NCBI GenBank assembly: GCA_963795125.1
Contig: CAWCGQ010000004.1
Coordinates: 701,842-765,841 of the forward strand
Direction: 5' to 3'
Source of the DNA: an uncultured Acidimicrobiia bacterium
Lineage (GTDB): Bacteria; Acidobacteriota; Vicinamibacteria; Vicinamibacterales; UBA2999
DNA length: 64,000 nucleotides
Shown: positions 21,340 to 49,900 of the stretch, piece after piece
Layout: each line of letters begins with the position of its first letter
How positions within the stretch are numbered: the first letter of the stretch is position 1
Made by a program: the position numbers and the translations under genes
The notes under the pieces: model-generated
The model's database searches: none
What the model saw: only the letters and a program-made list of their open reading frames with translations
What the model was told of the DNA's origin: nothing

Positions 21340-21526
21340 AAACGTGCTGGATCGTGACGTTTGGAGAGCGACGGCTTTAGCCGTCGCTCGATCGTGACTT
21401 CAGCCGTCGCTGACCAGCAGCGGGGGCTAAAGCCCCCGCTCTCCAAACGTGCTGGATCGTGACGTTTGGAGAGCGACGGCTTTAGCCGTCGCTCGATCGT
21501 GACTTCAGCCGTCGCTGACCAGCAGC
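21340..21526. repeat. REP cluster upstream of RAYT (three REPs; 105-bp direct repeat)
   Basis: TTGGAGAGCGACGGCTTTAGCCGTCGCT at 21361 and 21466; inverted variant AGCGGGGGCTAAAGCCCCCGCTCTCCAAA at about 21419-21447. Confidence 0.9.
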
Positions 21527-21558
21527 CAGTTCGGAGCTCTTCTTGCAGCGATTCGCGT

Positions 21559-22062
21559 ATGGCGAATCATCCGCACCGGCTTCCGAGATCTCACTACGTC
21601 GGTCGTCGAACGCACTTCCTCAGCGCTTGCACGCACTGTCGACACTCGCTGTTCCGCGAGCCAGCGACCTGCGAACTCGTGGTCACGCAATTACTGCGCA
21701 CATCCCGCAAGCACAGGTTTGCAATAATCGCGTACGTGCTGATGCCGGACCACATCCATGTCCTGCTAAAAGGCGGCTCGAACGATTCAGACTTTCTGAA
21801 ATGGCTCGACCTGTTCAGGCAGCTGTCGGCCTTCTGGGAGAAACGGCGATCGCGCTGCGTCCTCTGGCAGGAGGGATATTGGGACTACACCTTGCGAGAC
21901 GACGAGTCGGTCCCGGGCATCGCGTCGTACATCGTCTGGAATCCGGTCGCAGCTGGCCTGGTTGCGCGACCCGAACTCTACGCGTATACCGGATCCGAGA
22001 CGTCGACGGTCTTGGACCTGGCAGCGGCTCCGTCGCATAAGCCGCGTGTCGGAGACGTATAG
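21559..22062 (+). mobile_element. rayT: REP-associated tyrosine transposase (RAYT, IS200-like Y1 HUH nuclease)
   Basis: YVLMPDHIH (HUH), WQEGYWDYTLR, YIVWNPVAAGLV; flanked by REPs on both sides. Confidence 0.88.
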
Positions 22063-35873: not shown

Positions 35874-37152
35874 TCAGAGGATCGAGGTGCTCTTGCCGCC
35901 GAGCACCGCGACCACCCGGTCGATGTCGTCGTGGGTGTTGAACACCGACACCGCGAGGCGGATGCGATTCTCGTTGCCGATCACCGTCGCCGCCACGTGC
36001 GCCGCCTGCAGCATCTTCGTCGTCGAGGCCGCGTCCTTCAGTTCGAACGCGACGATCGGCGTGTCGGTGCCCATCGGCGTGAGCGCCTTGTAGCCAAGCG
36101 GCGGCAGTTCCTTCTGCAACCGGTCGGTCAGCTCCTTCGCGTGCGCGGCGGATGTTGGTGAGGCCGCACTTCACGACGTAGTCGATGCCGGCGTTCACGG
36201 CCGCCGCCATCACCACCGGGATGCCGCCGGTTTCATACCGCGCCGCGCCGGGCAGGGGTTCCCAGGTGAGCTGTGCGCGGTTGAAGTTCGTCACCTGCCG
36301 ATGCCCGAACCTGGTCGTCGGCAGCACCGTGCCCTGCAGATCCTCGCGGACGTAGAGGAAGCCGATGCCGCGTTCGCCCATCAGCCACTTGTAGGTGCCG
36401 GTCGAGGCGAAGTCGATGCCGAGCGCCTTGACGTCGATTGGCATCGCGCCGACGCCCTGGATGATGTCGGCGAACACATGCGCGCCGCGCGCATGCGCAA
36501 TCGCGCTCACCGCCTTCGCATCGTGCATGAACCCGTTGACGTTCGACACCAGCGCCATCGACACCAGCCGGGTGTTCTTGTCGATCGCCTTGGCCATGTC
36601 TTCCGGATCGATCGCCCAGTTCTTGTGCTTGACGATGCGCAGCTCGACGCCTTGCTTTTGCAGCTCCTTGTACATGTAGAGCGAGGAGGTGAAGTGCAGC
36701 TCGTCGATGACGATGTTGCTGCCCTTTTTCTTCGCCAGGTCGAGCCCCAAGACGACGATGTTTTCGCCGTCGGAGGTGTTGGCGGTGTAGGCAATTTCTT
36801 TGGCGGTGGCGTTGATCAGCGCGCCGAACTTCTTCTTGAGCTCTTCCTGTTTGGCCGCGCCAAAATCCGAGCGTCCCTCGCCGGCGCCGTAGAGCCGGTA
36901 GTCGATGACGTTCTTCATGGCCTCGGCCGCGAAGGTGCCCACCGGGTGCATCGACGCCGAATTCAGGTACGTCTCGGTCGAGACCGAAGGGAAGTGGAGG
37001 CGCACCGAGGGAGGGAACACTCCCGCCCGCGCCGGGTTCTGCAGCAGTCCCGTGGGGTCGGCCTTCTTCAGCTCCGCGGCTTCCGCGAACGTGGGCAGGT
37101 GGACGGCCGTCGCCAGCGCACCGGTGGTGGTGAGGAACTCGCGTCGATTCAT
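35874..37152 (-). CDS. Class V aminotransferase / cysteine desulfurase-like protein with Tat leader; frameshift near 36148
   Basis: MNRREFL, YLNSAS, DIIQGVG, TYKWLMG, RYETG, IRLAVSVFN. Confidence 0.85.
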
Positions 37153-37180
37153 TTCGGCCTCGTTACCGCATTCTACGCGG

Positions 37181-37304
37181 TTCCAGGGGTTCCAGTTCGG
37201 GTTCCAAAGGCAACGTTCGAGCGGAGTTCCAAGGTTCTGAACCCTGGAACCACAGAAGAACGACGCCTTTGGAACAGTTGGAACCCTTGGAACCCTTGGA
37301 ACCC
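37181..37304. repeat. Intergenic GGAAC/GTTCC short-repeat cluster in both orientations
   Basis: GTTCCA run at 37180-37232, then tggaacagt tggaaccct tggaaccct tggaaccc; same family as 30503-30538. Confidence 0.65.
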
Positions 37305-37307
37305 GCG

Positions 37308-38210
37308 TCAGTCGAGCTCCCTCGTCACCCACATGAACTGCTGCACGTCGATCATGTCCTTCGCCCCGAGCGGCGCCAGGCGCGCCAGCAGGGCGTTGCT
37401 CATGCGCAGGAACAGGTCGTAGGTTTCCCAGTTCGGGGTGGTGTCGTACTTCAGGTTCAGGCCCATGCGCGCGGCGATCACGTCGGTGTTGGTCGGCTTG
37501 AGCGGCAGGAAGCGTTTCGGGTCGGCCAGAAACGGCAGCAGCGTGACGATCGGCCAGGTGTGTACCTTGCCGCCGTCGGCCGGCAGCTTGCTCACCGCTT
37601 CGGCCATGGCCTTGAATGTCTGCTGGCCCGGGCCGGCGATGAAGGCCAGCGTGCTGGCGAGCACCAGGGTCGAGGCCTCGTCGGCTTTCACGAACGCCTT
37701 GTGCACCGCCTTCACTTCGAACGGCGACAGGATGTTGGTGGCGCGGAAGATGCCGTCGAACGCGCCGGCGATCTCGGCGTGCTTGGCTTGCTCGACCATC
37801 GCGGCGCCGCGGCCGTCGCCGAAGTTGGCCTGGAACACGTCCGCCGCCGCGCGCTTGTTGCGCAGGTCGTTATCCAGGAACTTCTCATCATCAAATTTGG
37901 CCGGGTAGGTGGCTTCGAACCACTGCACCGCGGCGTCGAGATCGTTCTGCAGGTCCTTGACCTTGCGCTTCGAGATCTTCTTGGGCTTGCCGGGACCGGT
38001 TTCGATGCCGTCGAGTTCCGGGTCGCTCTGCACGCTCGACTTGGTGATCTGGGTGGCGTCTTCGCGCAGCTTGCGCTGCGGGCCCTGGGGCGAACTGGCC
38101 AGCGACGGGAAGTGGATGATCGCGTAGGGCGAGATGATCTCGATGACCTTGCCGCGCTGCCACACTGGATGATCGACAAGGATGCCTACGTCATTGGGCG
38201 TTAAAAGCAT
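37308..38210 (-). CDS. DUF3553-like hypothetical protein, paralog 2
   Basis: HPVWQRGKV; WPIVTLLPF, LKP, PNWETY, DMIDVQQF. Confidence 0.7.
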   Translation of the reverse strand: MLLTPNDVGILVDHPVWQRGKVIEIISPYAIIHFPSLASSPQGPQRKLREDATQITKSSVQSDPELDGIETGPGKPKKISKRKVKDLQNDLDAAVQWFEATYPAKFDDEKFLDNDLRNKRAAADVFQANFGDGRGAAMVEQAKHAEIAGAFDGIFRATNILSPFEVKAVHKAFVKADEASTLVLASTLAFIAGPGQQTFKAMAEAVSKLPADGGKVHTWPIVTLLPFLADPKRFLPLKPTNTDVIAARMGLNLKYDTTPNWETYDLFLRMSNALLARLAPLGAKDMIDVQQFMWVTRELD

Positions 38211-38270
38211 CCGCACATTCTACGCTGTCGGGGCACAATAGCTGCATTCGGAACTGGCGAGGGAGACGAC

Positions 38271-38714
38271 ATGGCAAAGCGGAAAGCGGCGAAGAAACGG
38301 GCGGGCGGCGGCGAATCGGGCGGTTCGAGTGTGGAGCCCATGGTGATGGCGCTCGCCGAGCAGCTGGGATCGTTTCTGGGACGAGTCCAGAAGAAGGCCG
38401 ACGGCTGGCTGGAAAACGACGGCCTGCGGCAGCAGTTGAGCGGGATCCGCGACGGCGCCGCCGACCTGTTGAAGCAGGTGAACGCGTCGGCCGCCTCGGT
38501 CAGGAAATCGGTTGCCGCGCCCGCGCCGGCGAAGAAGGCGAAGGCAAAGCCGGCGGGTCGAGCGTCGAAGGGCCGCAGCGGCGGCGTGGTGGATGCCCCG
38601 GGCAAGCGGCATCGCAAACCGCCACCGCAGGAACTGTTCGATCCGCGTCTTGGCGAGCCGATGGGGAAGCAGATGGGTCAGAAGAATTTGAAGCGCCGGC
38701 CGCACCACGGCTGA
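38271..38714 (+). CDS. Small basic Lys/Ala-rich hypothetical protein
   Basis: GGGAG RBS; codon usage like neighbouring genes; 147 aa. Confidence 0.65.
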   Translation: MAKRKAAKKRAGGGESGGSSVEPMVMALAEQLGSFLGRVQKKADGWLENDGLRQQLSGIRDGAADLLKQVNASAASVRKSVAAPAPAKKAKAKPAGRASKGRSGGVVDAPGKRHRKPPPQELFDPRLGEPMGKQMGQKNLKRRPHHG

Positions 38715-38730
38715 GCGGTACGCGCTCGCT

Positions 38731-40504
38731 CGGCGCGGGGATCGCGACCAGACACTCGTTGCGCCGCGCCTCGCCGGCGCATGGATGCGACCGGCCGCTC
38801 ATCGTCGCCTCGGCGGCTCGCGCGGCGCGGGCTCGCAACGAGTCGCTCTCGCCGTTTTCGGCTCAGCTCGCCGGGAAAATGTCGCCCCGGCCTGTCAACC
38901 GATCGTTCGCCGGCGCTCCATTTTCCGGTGAAAACTCCGCGTCGGCTCGTTCAACGAAATCGGCGAGAGCGACTCGTTGCGCCGCGCCTCGCTCGCGCCA
39001 GAGTGCGGCAGGCCGGTCATCGTCGGCCTGGAGCGAGCGCGGAGGCTGATGATGATCGGGCTGTCGCGCTCACGGCGCTGTCGAGGCGCGGGGATCGCAA
39101 CGAGTCGCTCTCGCCGTTTTCGGCTCAGCTCGCCGGGAAAATGTCGCCCCGGCCCGTCAACCGATCGTTCGCCGGCGCTCCATTTTCCGGTGAAAACTCC
39201 GCGTCGGCTCGTTCAACGAAATCGGCGAGCGCGACTCGTTGCGCCGCGCCTCGCCCGCGCCAGAGTGCGGCAGGCCGGTCATCGTCGGCCGGAGCGCGAG
39301 CGAAAGCCGGCGGGAGGAGGCCCGATGGCCACCAGGGTGGCCGAGCGCCGAAGGAAAAGCGGGCCGACGGTCGGGTTTCTTGCCGCAACCTCGCTGTGCG
39401 CCGCAGCAGCGTCAGTCAGGCGCGAACAGCGAGTTGGTAGCCGTCTGGAGCGAGCGCGGAGGCTGATGATGAGCGGGCTGTCGCGCTCACGCCGCTGTCG
39501 AGGCGCGGGGATCGCAACGAGTCGCTCTCGCCGTTTTCGGCTCAGCTCGCCGGGAAAATGTCGCCCCGGCCCGTCAACCGATCGTTCGCCGGCGCTCCAT
39601 TTTCCGGTGAAAACTCCGCGTCGGCTCGTTCAACGAAATCGTCGAGAGCGACTCGTTGCGCCGCGCCTCGCCCGCGCCAGAGTGCGGCAGGCCGGTCATC
39701 GTCGGCCGGAGCGCGAGCGAAAGCCGGCGGGAGGAGGCCCGATGGCCACCAGGGTGGCCGAGCGCCGAAGGAAAAGCGGGCCGACGGTCGGGTTTCTTGC
39801 CGCAACCTCGCTGTGAGCCGCAGCAGCGTCAGTCAGGCGCGAACAGCGAGTTGGTAGCCGTCTGGAGCGAGCGCGGAGGCTGATGATGAGCGGGCTGTCG
39901 CGCTCACGCCGCTGTCGAGGCGCGGGGATCGCAACGAGTCGCTCTCGCCGTTTTCGGCTCAGCTCGCCGGGAAAATGTCGCCCCGGCCCGTCAACCGATC
40001 GTTCGCCGGAGCTCCATTTTCCGGTGAAAACTCCGCGTCGGCTCGTTCAACGAAATCGTCGAGCGCGACTCGTTGCGCCGCGCCTCGCCCGCGCCAGAGT
40101 GCGGCAGGCCGGTCATCGTCGGCCGGAGCGCGAGCGAAAGCCGGCGGGAGGAGGCCCGATGGCCACCAGGGTGGCCGAGCGCCGAAGGAAAAGCGGGCCG
40201 ACGGTCGGGTTTCTTGCCGCAACCTCGCTGTGAGCCGCAGCAGCGTCAGTCAGGCGCGAACAGCGAGTTGGTAGCCGTCTGGAGCGAGCGCGGAGGCTGA
40301 TGATGAGCGGGCTGTCGCGCTCACGGCGCTGTCGAGGCGCGGGGATCGCAACGAGTCGCTCTCGCCGTTTTCGGCTCAGCTCGCCGGGAAAATGTCGCCC
40401 CGGCCCGTCAATCGATCGTTCGCCGGCGCTCCATTTTCCGGTGAAAACTCCGCGTCGGCTCGTTCAACGAAATCGGCGAGAGCGACTCGTTGCGCCGCGC
40501 CTCG
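38731..40504. repeat. Non-coding tandem array: five hairpin cores spaced 262, 417, 417 and 417 bp, plus a collapsed core at 38731
   Basis: GCAACGAGTCGC at 38835, 39097, 39514, 39931 and 40348; each core bounded by the inverted repeat CGCAACGAGTCGCTCTCGCCG / CGGCGAGAGCGACTCGTTGCG (0-2 substitutions per copy). Confidence 0.95.
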
Positions 40505-40675
40505 CCGCGGGCGCCCCTTACGCGGGCTGGGTCTGGCTCGACGTCATGAGCTGCGAGTAACTGAGCTCCGCCGTTGCCGAGTATCGCTGGCGCAGTCACA
40601 CGTTCCTAGTGGCCGCTCAACGAGCCAGCCACTGCGCCCCTCGCCTGGAACCACCCTGGCGCATAAGATGACCTC

Positions 40676-41886
40676 ATGAAGCTGATGCCGCTTGCGCTTG
40701 CCCTGCTGTCGCCGCTCGTCGCTGCGGCGCAGACGCCTCGCTCGATCCGCGACATCGCATCCGGCAGCCACTTCACCCTCGTCGTCAAGGCCGACGGCAC
40801 CGTCGTCGGCTGGGGACGCGATGCGGATGGGCAGGCCGCGCGGCCGGTGTCCGCCAATCGCGTCGTCGCCGCTCCCGTCACGATCGACCTGCCAGGCAAG
40901 GCGCTGCAGGTCGCCATGGGCGATACGACTCAATACGCGCTGCTCGAAGACGGCAGCGTCGTGGCCTGGGGCACGAACGACGAGGGACAGTTGGGCAACG
41001 GGCCGATGGGCGCGAGCGGAGAACCGGGCCGCTATCCAAAGCCGTCGATCACGCCGGTGCGCGTGACGGGTCTCGCCAACATCATCCAGATCGAAGCCGG
41101 CGCGAAGCACGCGGTGGCGCTGCGCAAGGACGGCACGGTGTGGGCCTGGGGCACGCGAGACGACGGGGCGATTGGCGATGGCGAGCCGAAGACACTGCGG
41201 CCGGTGATGGCGATTGGCGCAACGCAGGTGACGGGCCTGCAGGGCATCACGCGGATCGCCGCCAGCGGCCGCCACAACCTGGCGCTCAGGTCGGACGGCA
41301 AGGTGATGGCGTGGGGACTGAACCGCGACGGTCAACTCGGCAACGGCACGCGCGACAACGGATGGACGCCGGCGGAGGTGAGCGGCCTCGATCGCATCGT
41401 CGGCATTGCCGCGGGGCTGGCCGGCTTTGCCGGCAACTGCTTTTCAGGCGCGGTGCGAGACGACGGCACGGTGTGGACGTGGGGATCGGGCGTGGCGGGC
41501 GTGATGGGGAACGGCATGCGAGAACCCGTCGCCCGATGACCCCGGCGGCCGCAACCTGCTGCCGCTGCAGGTGCCGGGCCTGGCCAACGTGAAGACGCTG
41601 AGCTTCGGCATCGGCCACGCCGCGGCGCTGCTCGGCGACGGCACGCTCCGGATGTGGGGCCACGACGGATTCGGACAGATCGGCGTCGGCACGTCGAGCG
41701 ACTACTTACCCGAAGCCCGTGCCGGTCAAAGGGATCACCAACGTGTCGGCTGTCTACCTGGGCAGCATGCGCTCGTTCGCGGTGCGAACGGACGGCACGT
41801 TGTGGATCTGGGGCTTCGGGTCGACCGGCGGGCAGGGGATCCTGGGGAGGAATCTCCGCGTGCCGACCCTGATGGAGTTGCCGTAA
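40676..41886 (+). CDS. Secreted RCC1/BLIP-II repeat protein; frameshifts near 41530 and 41710
   Basis: Repeated H..AL..DG.V.AWG.N..GQLG. Confidence 0.85.
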
Positions 41887-41902
41887 CGCGGACGACGAAG
41901 AT

Positions 41903-43457
41903 TCACCACCGGAAGGCAGTATTGGCGGCGGCCCCGGCGAGTCGCGCGGTCAGGGCACTGGCAACCTGGTGATCGAGATACGGAATATCCACTCGATGCG
42001 AGAACTCGCCGGCGCCGGCCGTATCCACCCGCACGCGCGCCATCGCCGCGCGGCGATCGAACGGGGTCTGATGCAACGCCACTGCCTGGATCTTGTTGAC
42101 GCGCGCGATCGTGATCCGCTGCGAGATCCACCCGCTGCGCATCATCACCACCTCGTCACCCTCGGCCCACCGGAGATGCGCCACATACAGCCGTGTTTTG
42201 ATCACGCCCCATAGCAGCATCACGATCAGCACGCCGATGGCGCCCCAGCCAATCAGCAGCGCCGCAATCGCGGTGGCCAGCGCCGTGAAGATCAGCCACG
42301 GCTTGATCGCGCGCGCAAAGGCGCGCGGATGCACCGGGTGCCACTCTACCGCGCTCAAGTCGAAGCCAGGCACGACCTGCTGCAACAGTTGCGGCAGGGC
42401 GTCCTGCCGAATCAACGGCGCGAGCCATTCTCGAACGTTCGCGGCTTGTTGGGTGCCCGCCCCGCCGGCGGTGGCGACCCGCACCGTTGCGCGCTTCAAC
42501 CACCGGTGGAACGGCCCGGCGTCGATGGTGATCGCCTGCACGCGCCGCATCGGCACCGTGGCCGCCACTTTCGTGAACAGGCCGTACTCGCTGCGCAGAT
42601 CCTCGCCGACGCGGGTCAGGCGAAAATCATACAGACGAACCAGCGCCCAGACCATCGACACCACACGCACCAACACGACAAGGGCCGCAACCATCGCTGC
42701 AGCGATTCCAATGCCCGCGATCGGCAGCGGCCCACCGTCAAGAACCGCCCTGATCAGCTCGCGAACAGTCCCACGGTCGACGTTCGCCCCGACGGCAAAG
42801 GCACCGTCCGAGAGACGGTTGAACACACCCGTCTCCCAGCCGAGTCCGAACGCCGTGCCGATCAGGACCATCCCCTTGTTCTCGAGGAACCCGAACAGCA
42901 GGACCTCGCGGAAAGGAAGATGCAAGAGGACGGGGTGGGTAGGGTGCGGGAGGGCGGCGGTGCCGGGGTGCGACAGGTGCCGGCACGGCTCGCGATCGGT
43001 CGCCGAACACCCTTTCGCGCAGTTCGTGCAGCGCCGACAAGGGAAGAACGCTCAGGCGCGCTTCCTCTTCCTTGCCGCCCCCGGTTTCGACGCGCACTTC
43101 GACCACGCCGAGCAGGCGGTGAACGATGTTCTGGATCGCATCGACGTTCTGAATCCGCGAGAACGGGACGTGACGCTCGCGACGGAAAATCAGGCCCGAG
43201 CGGATCACCAACTCGTGGTCGTCGTAGCGAAGCCGGAACGTCAGGTAGCGAATGACGGAGGCAATCGCGGCGGGAACAAACAGCACCAGCAGCCACGCTT
43301 CCCACCCCGACGGGATGCCGCGGGTCGCGCCCCACGGGCCGCCGGAGGACTGCGACGCGCCGACGATCACCAGCACCGCCGGCACGGCGAAGTTCTTGGC
43401 ATGCTTCACCAGGTCAAACAGCAGGGTCGCCGGATGCAGCCGCTGTTCAGACGGCAT
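41903..43457 (-). CDS. YdbT-like membrane protein with bacterial PH domains; frameshift near 42930-42960
   Basis: RLHPATL, ELVIRSGLIFR..RHVPFSRIQ, VETGGG, VDTAGA. Confidence 0.8.
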
Positions 43458-43962
43458 CGCCTGTCCCCGATGGCAGCAGGTGCTCACGAATACGCAACGC
43501 GCGGCCGTGCTCGAGCCCACCGAGCTCGACCTTCGCGTGGTCGGTGCCCGCGGTGTAGATCACCAGCGTGCCAAGCCCATAGCGGCGCTCGATCGGCCCC
43601 TGCGACACATCGATGTGCTGCACGCGCGACCGCGGCACGTTGATGACGACGCGCCAGTAGACGCCCTTTCGGATCTCGATGCCCTGCTCGTCAACCCGAT
43701 ATGAAGTGTGCTGATACGCGCGCGCGGGCCAGCGATAGGCGTGCCACGCGCCGAACAGCGCCAGCACCAGCCAGAGGCCCGGCAACACGACGCGCAACAC
43801 GCCAGGCATGTCGTCGCTGACCAGCAAGGCGAAACTGACGCCGATGAGGGAGCCGGCAGCGATACCGGCGATGACGATGCCGCCGGCGATCCGCTCGAGC
43901 GGGATGACTTGCGGATCGAGGCGGTGGTCGAGGCCGTCGGCGAAGACACTCGGATCGGTCAC
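43447..43962 (-). CDS. YdbS-like membrane protein with a bacterial PH domain
   Basis: VPRSRVQHIDVSQGPIERRYGLGTLVIYTAG. Confidence 0.85.
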   Translation of the reverse strand: MTDPSVFADGLDHRLDPQVIPLERIAGGIVIAGIAAGSLIGVSFALLVSDDMPGVLRVVLPGLWLVLALFGAWHAYRWPARAYQHTSYRVDEQGIEIRKGVYWRVVINVPRSRVQHIDVSQGPIERRYGLGTLVIYTAGTDHAKVELGGLEHGRALRIREHLLPSGTGDAV

Positions 43963-44078
43963 GGTGTTGATTCTAGATGAATGTCACGTTCATCGATCCC
44001 GCCGCTCATCGACGTGATGGATCTCGAAGCCGTGGCCCTAAGGCCTTCGTTTGCCGCAGTCGAGTCCGGGAAGTGAGC

Positions 44079-44595
<517 letters not shown>

Positions 44596-44607
44596 TTAGA
44601 CGATGGT

Positions 44608-45148
44608 GGCTCAAGGCCTCGGCAGTTCTTGCCGGGCTTCCAAGCACTTCGCGATGCAGAATCTGCGATCGTTCGAGGCCGCAGGGTGTGGGTGCATATA
44701 GCTCGGCGCGGTAATCGCAACGAGTATCTCTCGCCGTTTTCGGCTCATCTCGCCGGGAAAATGTCGCTCGGCTCGTCAACGGATCGTTCGCCTGCGCTCC
44801 ATTTTCCGGGTCACAGCTGCGCGTCGGCTCGTTCAACGAAAACGTCGAGAGACACTCGTTGCACCGCGCCTCGGTTCAGGTCATCTTGCTCGCGCGCCTG
44901 TCTTTGCGGCCACGGCGGCGCTCAAGCACTCGCCGAGTCGTGGCGCCTGGTGATCCCTTTCGGGGTCGCCGGTCAGTTCTGCGATCTTCTCGATCAGGAG
45001 CCTGGTTCGGAGTTCGAGGCTGTCGATGTCGTTCGGGCCTTCCATTTGCGACGACGGTAGCATCGTCGATGGCGACGGCGACCGACCAAAGATCGCGTCG
45101 ATTGCAGATAGGTCAGTTGACTCGCAATCAGCCGTTTGCCGCCCGCCG
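44608..45148. repeat. Duplicated block A1, containing a diverged hairpin core at 44705-44873
   Basis: Colinear and highly similar to 46123-46585, with about 80 extra bp near 44885-44965. Confidence 0.9.
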
Positions 45149-45167
45149 ACCAGGAAGCGCGGGAGGG

Positions 45168-45340
45168 TTTGCCAACGTGAAGATTCGCGCCGGCGACGCG
45201 GTGTTCCTGCGCACAGGGCGCCGGCCGCAGCGCGCCGAGAAGGGGCCGTGGAACGTGGCGAGGAGCTCGGCCGGCTTCCACGCCTCGGTGATGCCGTGGC
45301 TGAAGCAGCGCGACGTGGCGCTGCTTGCAACGACGCTGTC
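45168..45340 (+). pseudogene. Internal fragment of a cyclase (kynurenine formamidase-like) gene
   Basis: VKIRAGDAVFLRTG...KGPWNVARSSAGFHASVMPWLKQRDVALL with no matching start or end. Confidence 0.55.
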
Positions 45341-45399
45341 GACGACCTGCAGCCCTCCTTGGGCGGGACGGGCTTTCCGTTGAATCCGCTCGCGACGTT

Positions 45400-45708
45400 C
45401 TAACTGCGCCCGGCCTCGCGCGCGGCCCATTCCCGGGCCATCGCGAGCATCGCGTCTTTTACTTCAGGCCAGTCGTGCAGTGTGGACGGGTCGAAGTCGG
45501 CGTCGTTGGGCCAGACGAGGGTATGAAACTCCTCGTCGAGTCGAACCGCGTTGAACATGCGCAGGTCCCTCAGCGGACCGAACAATTGCCCCTCGAGCAT
45601 CCCTGAAAAGTCGATTCGGCGCGTCAGTCCATCCTCGAACGAGACCTCGAGTTCATACGGGCCAACGATGGAAAACGCGGTGACGCGATGCAGTGGGCGG
45701 TGTTCCAT
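45400..45708 (-). CDS. DUF2442 family protein (putative antitoxin)
   Basis: LEVSFEDG..RRIDF...G.LFGPL...F..V......TLVWPNDADFDP.TLH. Confidence 0.82.
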   Translation of the reverse strand: MEHRPLHRVTAFSIVGPYELEVSFEDGLTRRIDFSGMLEGQLFGPLRDLRMFNAVRLDEEFHTLVWPNDADFDPSTLHDWPEVKDAMLAMAREWAAREAGRS

Positions 45709-45711
45709 GAT

Positions 45712-45981
45712 TCACATCAGCGGGTCAATCTTGAACGATGGTTGCCCGGATTTCAACAGTTCCCAGTTCGTCACGAGTTCATGCTGATGGATCGTCGCCC
45801 ACGCTTCGACGAGTCGGCGTTGTGGCGCCGGCAGTTCCCCGGCGAGGGCCGCCAGCGTGTCGATGGCAAACACCGCAGACCACTGCTGGTATTTCGCGTG
45901 GAAGTGCGGTCGATGATGTTGAATGTCGCGCTCCGAGAACATGCGGATGACGATTCCATAGAAACGAGAGATCTCGGGCAT
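45712..45981 (-). CDS. DUF4160 family protein (putative toxin)
   Basis: MPEISRFYGIVIRMF...HHRPHFHA.Y...LVEAWA.IHQ.EL..NW...KIDPL. Confidence 0.85.
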   Translation of the reverse strand: MPEISRFYGIVIRMFSERDIQHHRPHFHAKYQQWSAVFAIDTLAALAGELPAPQRRLVEAWATIHQHELVTNWELLKSGQPSFKIDPLM

Positions 45982-46122
45982 GACCCCGAGGTTGCGAAGC
46001 GGATGCCGAAGGCAATCTTCACGATTCCCGAATGAATCGTGACGCGGCACACGGCAGGGTGGCAGATTCTGCTGAGGCCGCCGCACGGTGGTCGCGCAAG
46101 AGTTGCGGCCGACGATTCACCA

Positions 46123-46585
46123 GGCTCAAGGCCTCGGCAATTCTTGCCGGGCTTCCAAGCACTTCGCGATGCAGAATCGGCGATCGTTCCAGCCGCAGGG
46201 GTGTGGGTGCATATAGCTCGGCGCGGTAATCGCAACGAGTATCTCTCGCCGTTTTCGGCTCATCTCGCCGGGAAAATGTCGCTCGGCTCGTCAACGGATC
46301 GTTCGCCTGCGCTCCATTTTCCGGGTCACAGCTGCGCGTCGGCTCGTTCAACGAAAACGTCGAGAGACACTCGTTGCACCGCGCCTCGGTTCAGGTCATT
46401 CATCGCCGGTCAGCTCGACGATCCTTTTGATCAGGAGCCTGGTTCGGAAGTCGAGGCTATCGATGTCGTTCGGGCCTTCCATTTGCGACGAAGGTAGCAT
46501 CGTCGATGGCGACTGCGATCGACCAAAGATCGCGTCGATTGCGGATAGGTCAGTTGACTCGTGATCAGCCGTTAGCCGCCCACCG
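46123..46585. repeat. Duplicated block A2, containing a diverged hairpin core at 46220-46388
   Basis: Second copy of 44608-45148. Confidence 0.9.
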
Positions 46586-46861
46586 TTTAGCCATCGCGGC
46601 GAACTCCGCTTCAACGTTGGGCCAGTCATGCAACGTGGCCGGGTCGAAGTCTGCGCCGTTTGGCCACACCAGCGTATAACCTTCGTCGTCGACCCTCACG
46701 CCGTTGAAGACAGCGAGTTCCTTCAGGGGCCCGAACAGTTTCCCTTCGAGAACCCTCGTGAATTTGATGCGACGCGTCAGACCATCATCGAAGGTGACGT
46801 CGAGCTCGAAGGGGCCGACGATTGAGAACGCCGTCACGCGGTACATCGGATGGTGGTGCAT
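46565..46861 (-). CDS. DUF2442 family protein, second copy
   Basis: Paralog of 45400-45708 (RVTAFSIVGP, TLVWPNGADFDPATLHDWP). Confidence 0.82.
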   Translation of the reverse strand: MHHHPMYRVTAFSIVGPFELDVTFDDGLTRRIKFTRVLEGKLFGPLKELAVFNGVRVDDEGYTLVWPNGADFDPATLHDWPNVEAEFAAMAKRWAANG

Positions 46862-46871
46862 TAGCGGCCCC

Positions 46872-46919
46872 TCACAGCAATGGCCTGATCTTGAAGGATG
46901 GCTGACCGGAATTCAAGAG
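46872..46919 (-). pseudogene. 3' remnant of a second DUF4160 gene
   Basis: Reads LLNSGQPSFKIRPLL*, versus LLKSGQPSFKIDPLM* in the intact copy. Confidence 0.65.
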
Positions 46920-46978
46920 GCGGCGTTGCAGAATCTGCGGCAATCCGTTATCAGGAACGAAGCAAATGGTGCGATCGC

Positions 46979-49900
46979 CTATGCCGTCGCGACCTTTGCC
47001 TGTCGGAAGAAATCAGCCGGCATCGGCCTACGCAATTGCCACACAAATTGGATCGGCCGTTCTTGCTTGTGTGAAACGTAATCGACCGGGCCAAGGAAGG
47101 TGTACGGGACAGTGAGTCCGTCTTGCTTCTTCCGCGACCTCACGAACAGCAGGATGTGACCGCCCAGCTCGCGGTGGTGAATGTAGCGTTGACCGGTTGG
47201 CGACCGTTGCGATGTGGTCGATTGCGACTCCCAGTGGAATTGCAGCGGAGAAATCGCGTAGTCCTTGTAAAGCGTCGACGGCGAGTAGTCGCGTTCAGAC
47301 TTCTCGAGCGTGACGAAGAACAGGTCGGAGTTGGTGGCCTGGTCGCGGTAGGTGCCTTCCCGATGCTGATAGAAATGACCCGGCGTGATGCGTCCGAACG
47401 CCGCAAGGATCTCGACCAGGGAATGGCGCGCGTGAATTTGTAGGGGCGGGTCCGTTGGTCGGCGCCCATGCGCAAGGCGGAAGACCTGCCAGTTCAAGCG
47501 GGTAGGTCACATGGTCGGCGCGTTCCTCCAGCAGACCGAACAACTCAAGCAACTCCTGGACGATTGCCGGATGCGCCTGGATCGCCTGCATGGCCTCCGC
47601 GATGGTCGCTGGTGCTTGACTGCCCCACAGCGTGAAGACGAGGGCTGTGATCAGGCGATCGTCAGCGCTCTCGCCTTTCAGCCACGCTCGATACGCGTCG
47701 AGGCGCACCGGGTCATCGATGTGCAGAAGCCGCTTTAATGCGTCGCCCAGCTCTTGCTCGTTCGGCCCTGCCGGAAGAGTGGGCACGCCGGCTAGGCGAG
47801 CAAGATCGGACCACGAGCCGGACTTGTAGACATCAAGAAGATCGAGCCCGCTCTCTTCGAGAAACTCCTTGAGCCGCGGTGTCCTGCCGCGGAATCGATC
47901 CGAGCTGGCAAGCTCCCGAAGTTCGCGAACCATCGCCGGCCGTTGAGATGGCAGCGCGGTTCGCAGATTCTCGAGGACGATCTCCTTTGCGACTCGGTCC
48001 AACTGCATCGTGGAGCCGGCCGGCAGGAAAGGGAATCCCTGCTCGATCTGTTTGCCCACCTCGATTCGCGATGCGCCGGTAATCGCTCGGTAGCGCAGGT
48101 CGAAGCGGAACTTGCGGTGCGACTGGCCGATGAAGTCCAGCACCGTTACGCAGTCCTTGCCCTCGAATCGGCGCAGGCCGCGACCCAGTTGCTGCATGAA
48201 CACGAGCGCGCTCTCGGTCGGACGCAGGAACAGCAAGGTGTCGACGGCGGGTAGGTCGACGCCCTCGTTGAACAGATCCACGGCAAAGAGCGCGCGCAGG
48301 TGGCCCTTCTGCAGGTCCGCCAAGGCCTTGCGCCGCGTCTCGCTGTCGGTATTTGCCGAAACCGCCTTCGACGGTAAGCCGGCGTCGGTGAAGCGTCGAG
48401 CCATGAACTCCGCGTGCGCAATGCTCACGCAGAATCCCAGCGCTTTCATCGCCGTCACATCGCACAGCTTGTTCTGTAACTGCTGCAGCACCAATCGCAC
48501 GCGCGCATCGTCTCCGGTGTAGAGGCGCTCGAGTTCGCCGACGTCATAGCCCTTCCGCGACCACTCGACGCTGGACAGATCGGTGTTGTCGCTCAGGCCG
48601 AAATACTGAAACGGGCACAGCAGGCCGCGCTCGAGCGCGTCCCAGAGCCGAAGCTCGACTGCAATGTGATTGTCGAAATAGCGAAGGATGTCGGCGCTGT
48701 CGGTGCGCTCTGGTGTCGCGGTCAGTCCGATCAGTTCGCGCGGCTGCAGGTGTTCGAGCAGTCGACGATACGTGGGCGCCGTGGCGTGATGGAACTCGTC
48801 GACGATCACCACCTCGAACGCGTGGGGATCGAGGTTCGCGAGATCGAGATGGTCCAAGCCCTGCACCGAGGCGAACACGTGCCGCCATTCGTCCGGGCGG
48901 TGGCCGTCGACGTAGAGCTCGCCGAAGGCACCATCCTTCAACACCTGCCGGAATGCGCCGAGGCTCTGCCGGAGGATCTCCTGGCGATGTGCGACGAACA
49001 GCAGGCTCGGATCGCCCATTTCGCTGTCGAAGACGCTTAAAGTCGAGCGCCGACACAATCGTCTTTCCTGTGCCGGTAGCAGCGACGACGAGATTGCGAT
49101 GTCGGTTATGACGCGAGCGCTCGACAGCGAGCTTCTCCAGCATTTCGGTCTGGTGAGGCCAGGGCGTGACGTCGAGGAAGTTGAGCGGGAAATCGCCACC
49201 TGAGTCTGAGGGTGGTGCAAGCGCGTTGGTGAGCCGATCGCCATCGCGTGCGGGGTCGTAGTCTTCGTATTCGGGGCTCTGCCAGTAGCTGTCAAAGGTC
49301 GCGTCGAACTTCTCGAGGATGTCGGGCGACGTCACCTGCGAGAGGCGAACATTCCACTCGACGCCGTCGATCATCGCGGACTTCGAGAGGTTGGATGAGC
49401 CAATGTAGGCGGTTGAGTAGCCGGTCAATCGTCGGAACATCCACGCCTTGGCATGGAGGCGCGTGGATTGCGTGTCGTAGGAGACTTTCACCTGCGCGCC
49501 GAGGGCTACCAGCCAGTCAAGCGCCTTCCGTTCGGTGGACCCCGTATAGACCGTCGTGATGACACGTAGAGGACGCCCAGCGCGGCAGTGGTCGCGGATC
49601 TGGTCCTCGAGCACACGGATGCCGTGCCAACGGACGAACGCGCAGAGCAGGTCGATGGAGTCGGCGGATGGAATCTCGTGCTGTAGCGCGTGCGCAAGGC
49701 TCGGCTCGCCGCGCGCGTTCACGAGGAGGTCGGAGTCCGACAGCGGCACAAGCGGCGCGACGATGTCGCGATCCTCCCCGAGTGTGCCGCCAGCTCCTTG
49801 AATCGACCGAAGCTGTTCGACTGGCACTTCGAGCAGGTCGCCAGCCGCACCAAGGCCTTTGATGATTTCGTTGGTGAGTGCGGCCTGAGCCGACTCTCGT

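Follow-up and report, generated by a model that had tools for sequence, protein, structure and literature searches.

The stretch of DNA considered here, referred to below as the window, comprises 64,000 nucleotides (nt) of contig CAWCGQ010000004.1 (positions 701,842 to 765,841, forward strand) in the assembly GCA_963795125.1 of an uncultured bacterium of the order Vicinamibacterales. On its + strand, at 38722-40507, it carries a tandem array with a period of 417 nt and repeats that are 98% alike, beginning 8 nt past the stop codon of the upstream gene. We found the 417-base unit to be a dyad of two separate folded non-coding modules, designated A and B, and not the one rod proposed in an original prediction that had been made from the letters alone. 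Members of both module families are dispersed among the genomes of a single genus, and B, judged by the covariation of its paired bases, looks like an undescribed structured RNA.

The gene upstream of the array (38271-38714, +) encodes a 147-amino-acid (aa) basic protein, rich in Lys, Ala and Gly, that belongs to no Pfam family and has homologues in 21 of the 37 genomes of the genus, the present one included. The array ends ~170 nt before the downstream gene (40676-41539, +), which a protein scan assigns to the RCC1-like repeat proteins. The five flanking genes scanned specify an aminotransferase, two proteins of unknown type, the RCC1-like protein and a bPH_2 protein, and a second bPH_2 gene lies further on. 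There is no tRNA gene within 36000-48000. Neither a sigma-70-like promoter nor an intrinsic-terminator-like site is predicted between 37800 and 41200, so that read-through from the upstream gene into the array would be possible.

Tandem Repeats Finder reported 3.5 copies of the 417-nt period, with 98% matches, over 39028-40506, and a repeat search placed five copies of a core hairpin in register at spacings of 262, 417, 417 and 417 nt, each with inverted arms of 27 nt that are 89-96% complementary and 94 nt apart. The tandem array, its 417-bp unit, the five cores, their terminal inverted repeat and the scattered substitutions between copies had thus all been perceived correctly in the original prediction; the units are 98-99% alike and differ by substitutions, with a 155-nt deletion in one of them. 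As delineated by the repeat searches and by reading of the sequence, the array consists of a degenerate leader followed by A, a truncated B, A, B, A, B, A, B and A, all on the + strand. The leader (38731-38832), which was recognized by sequence reading and through the repeat families D2 and D3, is a collapsed remnant of A, with its 5' end joined to its 3' end, and then a remnant resembling the 5' strand of the B closing stem. The five A copies are rod palindromes that correspond to the cores of the original prediction; they occupy 38833-38993, 39100-39250, 39512-39672, 39934-40084 and, at the array end, 40346-40506, and score 68, 65.3, 63.1, 61.4 and 68.6 bits, respectively, with the covariance model R2 described below. 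The three full B copies, at 39261-39485 (C4:741102-741326), 39678-39902 (C4:741519-741743) and 40095-40319 (C4:741936-742160), score 184.4, 189.1 and 189.1 bits with the model R1. In the short first unit, the one with the spacing of 262 nt, B (38999-39068; C4:740840-740909; a partial R1 match of 42.7 bits) is left with only the two strands of its closing stem, ~155 nt of its interior having been lost between two GGAGCG-type direct repeats.

Two folded modules in one unit

The RNA fold of one phased unit (39445-39861) has a minimum free energy of -234.3 kcal/mol on the + strand (z -4.77, with 0 of 100 shuffles as good) and of -205 kcal/mol on the - strand (z -2.59, with 1 of 100 as good). All the outer pairings that had been taken to extend the core into an imperfect rod of ~250 nt are present in the + strand fold, as is the inner CCGGGAAAATG/CATTTTCCGG pair, and the G-T bias noted for the + strand recurs in the A copies of the window, which show 5 G-T cells and 0 A-C cells in the modelled pairs. 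The single rod itself did not survive the analysis. What had been read as its outer stems belongs to B, whose closing stem supplies both strands, 3' and 5': the strings TCATCGTCGGCC and GGCTGATGATGA are the two ends of this module, which pair with each other and covary, and in the solitary copies found in relatives they close B itself and not the core hairpin. In a head-to-tail array, two partners are open to the 3' strand of a B copy, namely the 5' strand of the same copy and that of the copy following it; the second choice encloses A, and it is this one that appears in the fold of a single phased unit. The ~155-nt stretch that had been treated as a spacer is the best-conserved and most RNA-like part of the unit, and in other genome scans it would be worth bearing in mind that conservation in a tandem array can be highest in its apparent spacer.

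The array is non-coding, the original prediction having found no credible protein in it; none of its five open reading frames (ORFs) has a Pfam match at E<=0.1. A 24-codon ORF behind GGAGG in B copies 2 and 3 was considered and set aside, its ATG being replaced in relatives by TTG, GGG, AGG and other triplets. The suggestion of a structured non-coding element of no recognized family likewise stands: the unit is strongly structured, and a search of the whole 64-kb window with the 4227 models of Rfam release 15 gave no match at gathering score. Within the array region, the Rfam matches at E<=10 were limited to models of plant microRNA precursors, a model of a clustered regularly interspaced short palindromic repeat (CRISPR) and the like, all far below gathering; the best of them, to MIR1437, reached 32.3 bits against a gathering score of 168 and reflects a generic long hairpin.

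Covariation and strand in the two families

When one unit was compared by BLAST with 61 genomes (60 relatives and the present one), the matches fell mostly within nucleotides ~240-417 of the unit plus 1-34 of the next one, and the part that matches many genomes of the genus was module B, not the core hairpin. B is ~212 nt long and consists of a long closing stem (P1) with G.A internal loops around a junction and two inner hairpins; the aligned ~212-nt stretches have conserved interior motifs in common. From a MAFFT alignment of 17 copies, the first row of which is B copy 2 of the window, RNAalifold predicted 45 pairs, of which 26 are changed on both sides in at least one sequence. The covariance model built from this alignment (R1) found 65 matches in the loci scanned. 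In the resulting alignment (61 distinct rows), 95.7% of the cells at paired positions form standard pairs, against 31-45% when the partners are slid by 1-3 columns; both sides have changed in 40 of the 45 pairs, a count of covarying cells that overstates the number of independent events by virtue of the relatedness of the copies, in one genome and from one genome to another; and a covariation score of 0.489 compares with 0.04-0.08 in the controls. None of 500 shuffles reached any of the five measures used. The independent 17-copy MAFFT alignment agrees in direction with this model-fitted one.

The paired cells of B include 119 G-U or U-G combinations against 13 A-C or C-A combinations (64 against 10 when the rows of the present genome are omitted), and this excess indicates that the B fold is selected on one strand, which in the window is the + strand. 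In P1 and in the first inner helix, the internal loops set G or A opposite G or A (GGA/GGA, GA/GA), letters that are invariant or nearly so and that we read as tandem G.A pairs. The closing stem has at least 17 pairs, and its ends vary and covary between copies rather than being conserved. At syntenic loci of different species, copies of B differ by 1-11 compensatory pairs, against 0-5 broken ones, and the fold is kept. Each such locus would be under selection for the fold if the copies are true orthologues; alternatively, insertion may have occurred independently at a favoured site.

Module A is a rod palindrome of 150-190 nt with a variable closing stem and a conserved interior. As judged by eye from the flanks of 32 B copies, a hairpin of ~190 nt belonging to this family stands directly before 9 of them. 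The hairpins of eight relatives yielded a consensus of 41 predicted pairs, 22 of them with both sides changed, and the model R2, which was built from these eight hairpins only and contains no window sequences, matches the five array cores at 61-69 bits and two solitary copies elsewhere in the window at 72 bits. Since R2 matches all the window copies, the core is a shortened member of the A family, and a search for the core across this genome and its relatives, as had been proposed, places it in a dispersed palindromic repeat family. In the R2 alignment (72 matches), 95.4% of the cells pair, against 33-46% in the slid controls, and 37 of the 41 pairs have both sides changed. Covariation among homologues, which had been named beforehand as a test of a structured element, is thus present in both modules. 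The further idea of a non-autonomous palindrome amplified head to tail fits A and fails for the unit as a whole, which is not one rod. R1 also matches A weakly, at about 27-34 bits on the opposite strand, and B matches itself in reverse at similar scores; as a weak lead, A may be a diverged, inverted relative of the rod of B.

Two sets of smaller repeats were seen beside the modules. In the relatives' loci L068, L070, L075 and L093 (and partly in L071), an inverted copy of 21-48 nt of the B 3' strand, including the loop letters, lies upstream of A; the A-B dyads at these loci are consequently bracketed by a long inverted repeat, and the B 3' strand could pair with either of two partners. Hairpins that are small, G+C-rich and terminated by CTAC or CCAC, similar to repetitive extragenic palindromic (REP) sequences and separate from A and B, occur just downstream of B in at least 6 of 32 copies with examined flanks (for example at L073, L076, L080, L083, L084 and L098).

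Distribution in the genome, the genus and beyond

The locus is not unique. The genome (5.16 Mb in 4 contigs) contains 25 R1 matches at 8 places. Three full copies and one partial copy belong to the window array; the other 21, more diverged (63-95 bits), are spread over seven further intergenic places, which by ORF calls lie between unrelated ordinary genes. Six of these seven places hold two to four copies, ~310-880 bp apart, and together account for 20 of the 21 copies; in all, 7 of the 8 places have at least two B copies alternating with rod hairpins. The copies outside the window array constitute a second subfamily and are, by eye in the alignment, very alike from place to place. Between the B copies of every array there is a long hairpin of 98-287 nt, or a stretch of 668 nt where further copies intervene, and nested palindromic blocks are found in some of these inter-B stretches and not in others. 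R2 has 13 matches in the genome, and most of the inter-B hairpins are members of a rod family outside the reach of R2. This family, whose arms start with CCCGCCTGGACTGCCGGGCGTGACC, alternates with B at C3:202598-204201, C3:634960-636026, C3:644246-645767, C1:2093465-2094673 and C1:2068634-2069727, with spacers of 159-287 nt and variable nested palindromic blocks.

R1 matches were found in 25 of the 37 genomes of the genus, at 1-10 per genome outside the present one (overall range 0-25), and 12 have none; in G003 and G034 the matches are confined to weak ones that coincide with A copies on the opposite strand, which makes 23 of 37 the safer count. R2 matches, for which up to 70 candidates per genome were scored, occur in 28 of the 37, with at least 60 in G003, 21 in G001 and 18 in G011, and A is present without B in G001, G006 and G019. 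(The genus tallies for R2 and for the Y1_Tnp transposase family discussed below, and two rows of the R2 alignment, include the unpublished genome G035, on which alone no claim rests.) The A copies of the genus occur in both orientations, and the flanks of 20 copies in G003 are unrelated to each other. At the G003 loci L137, L140, L142, L143 and L152, a third palindromic repeat of ~150 nt, with the centre AAAAAGCG...CGCTTTTT, lies directly downstream of some A copies and can be taken as a further sign of mosaic repeat clustering in the genus.

Beyond the genus, a sample of 151 genomes of the order gave R1 matches under strict filters in 3 of 3 members of the genus (this one included), in 0 of 10 members of other genera of the family and in 0 of 138 members of other families. 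The closest named contig to a window protein is that of a Vicinamibacterales MAG, at 61% identity, which makes an acidobacterium the probable source. The B motif was found in 35 contig stretches from metagenomes, 23 of them with an R1 match, and one independent metagenome contig has the order B-A-B at the spacing seen in the window. A distant blastn search of a plasmid collection with one unit gave no match; in viral contigs the A motif had no match, and the single match of the B motif, with 0 R1 matches, is no B element. Of the words sampled from the stretch, only about 5% are present in seven DNA metagenome runs, and in four of these runs short contigs of related organisms cover the flanking genes and almost nothing of the array, making these runs uninformative on copy number and expression. 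Our full-text search of the literature, which was non-exhaustive and covered main texts without supplements, found no description of such repeats in Vicinamibacter-like bacteria.

The order of the aminotransferase gene, a gene for a 302-aa protein of unknown type and the basic-protein gene is kept in 9 of 19 loci of relatives, and that of the last two genes in 3 more. In none of these 12 homologous loci is there an A or B element within ~1.5 kb, and G007 is the only relative with an A copy (one, upstream of the gene) at the homologous locus. Since the homologous loci lack the array, its presence at this place is specific to the present lineage and points to a recent acquisition. At one such locus (L167, in G016) nine GCAAGCC(G) heptamer repeats follow the stop codon of the basic-protein gene, where the window has the array.

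Readings of the array

The reading that we favour, while regarding it as evenly balanced between right and wrong, is that of an (A-B)n cluster of two genus-specific structured repeat families that was amplified in place and is read through, with B acting as an RNA domain. The alternating layout of B and rods recurs at other places in the genome and in an independent metagenome assembly. An A-B dyad, in an order that recurs across the genus, would have landed just past the stop codon of the basic-protein gene, and unequal recombination between units would have amplified it, one unit losing its B interior between short direct repeats; growth by this route is suggested by the near identity of the units and the internal deletion in one of them. 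The array might then be read through from the upstream gene, whereupon B in the + strand RNA would fold as a closed domain and serve as a structured transcript end or protein-binding element, with the A rods forming hairpins between the B copies. A bolder proposal, which we put forward tentatively and consider somewhat improbable, is that B represents a new class of structured bacterial RNA, rendered multimeric by arrays in which A rods separate its copies, and that it acts as a protein-binding scaffold or one that organizes the nucleoid or RNA, or else replicates itself through an RNA-level step, having multiplied to 25 copies in this genome. B would, if it is an RNA in its own right, be a new family worth adding to Rfam, and it shares with the families curated there the hallmarks of covarying helices and conserved loops.

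Several observations weigh against an RNA-level role or temper the evidence for it. The wobble bias of B could equally reflect a single-stranded DNA (ssDNA) intermediate of one strand. A has no such bias (23 G-U against 36 A-C cells) and, for want of strand-specific wobble, looks like a DNA-level palindrome. The alignments of R1 and R2 matches, having been made by fitting to the models, are biased in favour of the modelled structures, and related rows in them are not independent. B is confined to one genus at 0-25 copies per genome, a pattern typical of selfish repeats as opposed to an essential RNA. Its orientation relative to the upstream gene is the same at 14, opposite at 2 and uncalled at 9 of 25 loci in the genus; the corresponding numbers are 3, 4 and 6 for 13 metagenome loci and 5, 3 and 0 for the present genome (by ORF reading), and such differences between data sets mean that the bias is not robust. 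No RNA run is among the sequencing runs listed for the stretch. As to the landing of the dyad, the loci compared revealed no mobilizing enzyme, target duplication or empty-site pair.

In their manner of working the elements can be likened to several known kinds of bacterial repeat, and they belong to none of those families. Clusters of REP sequences, or bacterial interspersed mosaic elements (BIMEs), are similarly intergenic and composed of palindromic units repeated head to tail. One account describes REP325 as six repeats of two palindromic units that are transcribed into an RNA (naRNA4) that binds HU and condenses the nucleoid (PMC4550694); in another, BIMEs are stated to affect mRNA stability and to bind IHF, Pol I and gyrase (PMC3184786). 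The size of REP units is given as 20-40 bp (PMC3733652). A and B, by comparison, are 150-225 nt long, five to ten times larger, have multi-helix structure and exhibit no likeness to REP in sequence, and no REP-associated transposase adjoins them in this genome. To our knowledge, REP sequences have not been described as combining strong covariation, strand-specific wobble and conserved G.A loops, as B does. Membership in the REP/REPIN-RAYT system was rejected on the grounds of size, its members being short palindromes, often tagged with GTAG or CGTC, in inverted doublets, and on the grounds of enzyme, no Y1 transposase being flanked by A or B in this genome.

The BOX elements of Streptococcus pneumoniae, like the present array, are non-coding and built of modules, an inner one being repeated in tandem. 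Their modules are far shorter than A and B, and both the phylum and the sequences are unrelated. A review passage characterizes them as modular, tandemly repeated and transcribed, and portrays bcr1 of the Bacillus cereus group and the ERIC (enterobacterial repetitive intergenic consensus) repeats as imperfect palindromes of about 127-155 bp that are intergenic and co-transcribed with genes, the structure of bcr1 being kept at the RNA level by compensatory base-pair changes (PMC3184786). Module A is of the same kind as these palindromes. The short flanking direct repeats of the bcr1 and ERIC type (5 bp; TA) were not seen at A, a weak test given the fuzzy ends of the model; bcr1 and ERIC are, moreover, single hairpins for which no A/B dyad arrays are reported, and module B is not a simple hairpin. 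The function and spread of mosaic palindrome clusters, known for decades in enterobacteria and pneumococci, are still debated. The same kind of layout is met here in a soil lineage, probably an acidobacterial one, in units far larger than REP, and B bears uncommonly distinct signs that its single-stranded fold has been selected, with nearly all its pairs changed on both sides, G-U outnumbering A-C nine to one, and conserved G.A letters. A retron RNA, whose msr-msd part would be followed directly by a reverse transcriptase gene, was excluded as well: there is no reverse transcriptase among the window proteins scanned, in accord with the original prediction, and the arrays stand at 8 places between unrelated genes (7 of them by ORF calls only).

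The most serious alternative, which we nonetheless judge unlikely, is that A and B are purely DNA-level selfish palindromic repeats of the REPIN kind or of the kind of MITEs (miniature transposable elements with inverted repeats), moved as ssDNA hairpins by an enzyme acting in trans, for example one of the Y1 (HUH) transposase-like proteins of the genus, with the arrays as by-products that have no role as RNA. This explanation fits A well: in some genomes its copies number in the tens, facing either way amid unrelated flanks, and its pairs are nearly all of the Watson-Crick type with no excess of G-U. The confinement of both modules to the genus at variable copy number, the lack of the array at homologous loci and the wide occurrence of Y1_Tnp genes in the genus agree with it too. 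G-T is the most tolerated mismatch in ssDNA also, and the wobble bias is compatible with such an intermediate. Terminal inverted repeats, as expected of a MITE, are present in A (the 27-nt arms) and in B (the closing stem).

B is less well accommodated by such an explanation. Its conservation lies in the interior loops, and its ends vary and covary, contrary to what a terminal repeat bound by a transposase should show; its fold is kept at syntenic loci by compensatory changes; and there is no consistent replication-strand bias over its 8 loci, where the GC skew is weak. The enzyme invoked is likewise hard to connect with the repeats. Y1_Tnp genes occur in 35 of the 37 genus genomes, with 1-13 matches each, and being nearly universal their presence tracks neither A nor B. 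Three are found in the present genome (C3:1202266, C3:328248 and C4:723466), and no R1 or R2 match lies near any of them. Among the 221 flanking ORFs of 61 loci, read from sequence with no domain scans, there is no recurring transposase-like family, and the clusters that do recur fit shared gene order (synteny). No autonomous partner with the same ends and a transposase was found among these flanking ORFs, a search that was not exhaustive of all the genomes. Exact direct repeats of at least 3 nt abut the R2 ends in just 4 of 40 A copies, a weak test in which the fuzziness of the model ends could conceal a short duplication. Outward pairing of the A flanks runs to 2.1 against 2.17 in controls, with the same fuzziness of ends, and some A copies gave the impression of lying inside larger palindromes.

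Nearly as plausible as a DNA-level origin, and by our estimate slightly less so, is the possibility that B is a family of stand-alone genes for a trans-acting non-coding RNA, a protein-binding scaffold or sponge with promoters of its own, for which arrays raise the dosage and the A rods are processing sites or insulators. Its strong covariation, strand-specific wobble and conserved non-Watson-Crick letters, the several conserved GGA/GA motifs of the P1 internal loops, the syntenic position of some copies across species and a multi-copy tandem layout like that of tandem small-RNA genes would all be explained. Promoters of its own are what the evidence fails to provide, given the lack of sigma-70-like promoters and intrinsic terminators in and around the array (37800-41200); nor was any shared motif seen by eye upstream of B copies without A, where no motif search was run. 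B is also patchy, with 12 of the 37 genus genomes lacking a match, the sole matches of G003 and G034 overlapping A on the opposite strand, no B found in the 148 other genomes of the order, and the homologous locus in relatives lacking the array.

Two other explanations appear very improbable. An array of attC-like recombination sites, as in integron cassettes or an integrase-less attC cluster, would account for regularly spaced imperfect palindromes that are alike within the genome, form several clusters and fold on one strand. attC sites have the core sites RYYYAAC ... GTTRRRY, a length of 57-141 nt and an integrase nearby. These core sites are not carried, A finishing in GTTGCGC and B lacking GTT at the 3' end; the units of 150-225 nt, with conserved interiors, are too long; the would-be cassettes between B copies are hairpins without ORFs; and there is no integrase among the flanking genes or, in all, the 7 proteins scanned. 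Equally hard to credit is an origin in faulty assembly or from a circular RNA, viroid-like or ribozyme-bearing, that was copied into the genome, to which the near-identical head-to-tail units and the rod-like fold might point, in view of the substitutions and the 155-nt deletion that distinguish the units, the recurrence of the layout with a different unit make-up at six other places and in an independent metagenome contig, the position of the array between ordinary genes on a 780-kb contig, the lack of any ribozyme family match even at E<=10, and the fate of a CUGAUGA-like, hammerhead-like string in B, which lies in a covarying stem and reads CTGACGA, ATGACGA or CGAACGA in relatives.

Some other features of the window touch on A and on transposition. 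The two solitary A copies (44718-44875 and 46233-46390, both + and both 72.1 bits with R2), the first of which is 89% identical to the array core and has no adjoining B, lie in the region 44563-47500, where a segment of ~1.5 kb is duplicated; either copy of the segment holds one A hairpin, with similar flanks. The original prediction that no transposase is adjacent to the array is correct for its immediate surroundings and has to be qualified for the window as a whole, in which a 198-aa ORF 17 kb upstream (21466-22062, +) matches Y1_Tnp, an IS200-like transposase family, weakly (29.3 bits; cut-off 23). The small genes on the - strand of the duplicated region encode DUF2442 proteins (45400-45708 and 46565-46861) and a DUF4160 protein (45712-46086), and there is a match to DUF3427 at 46979-47497.

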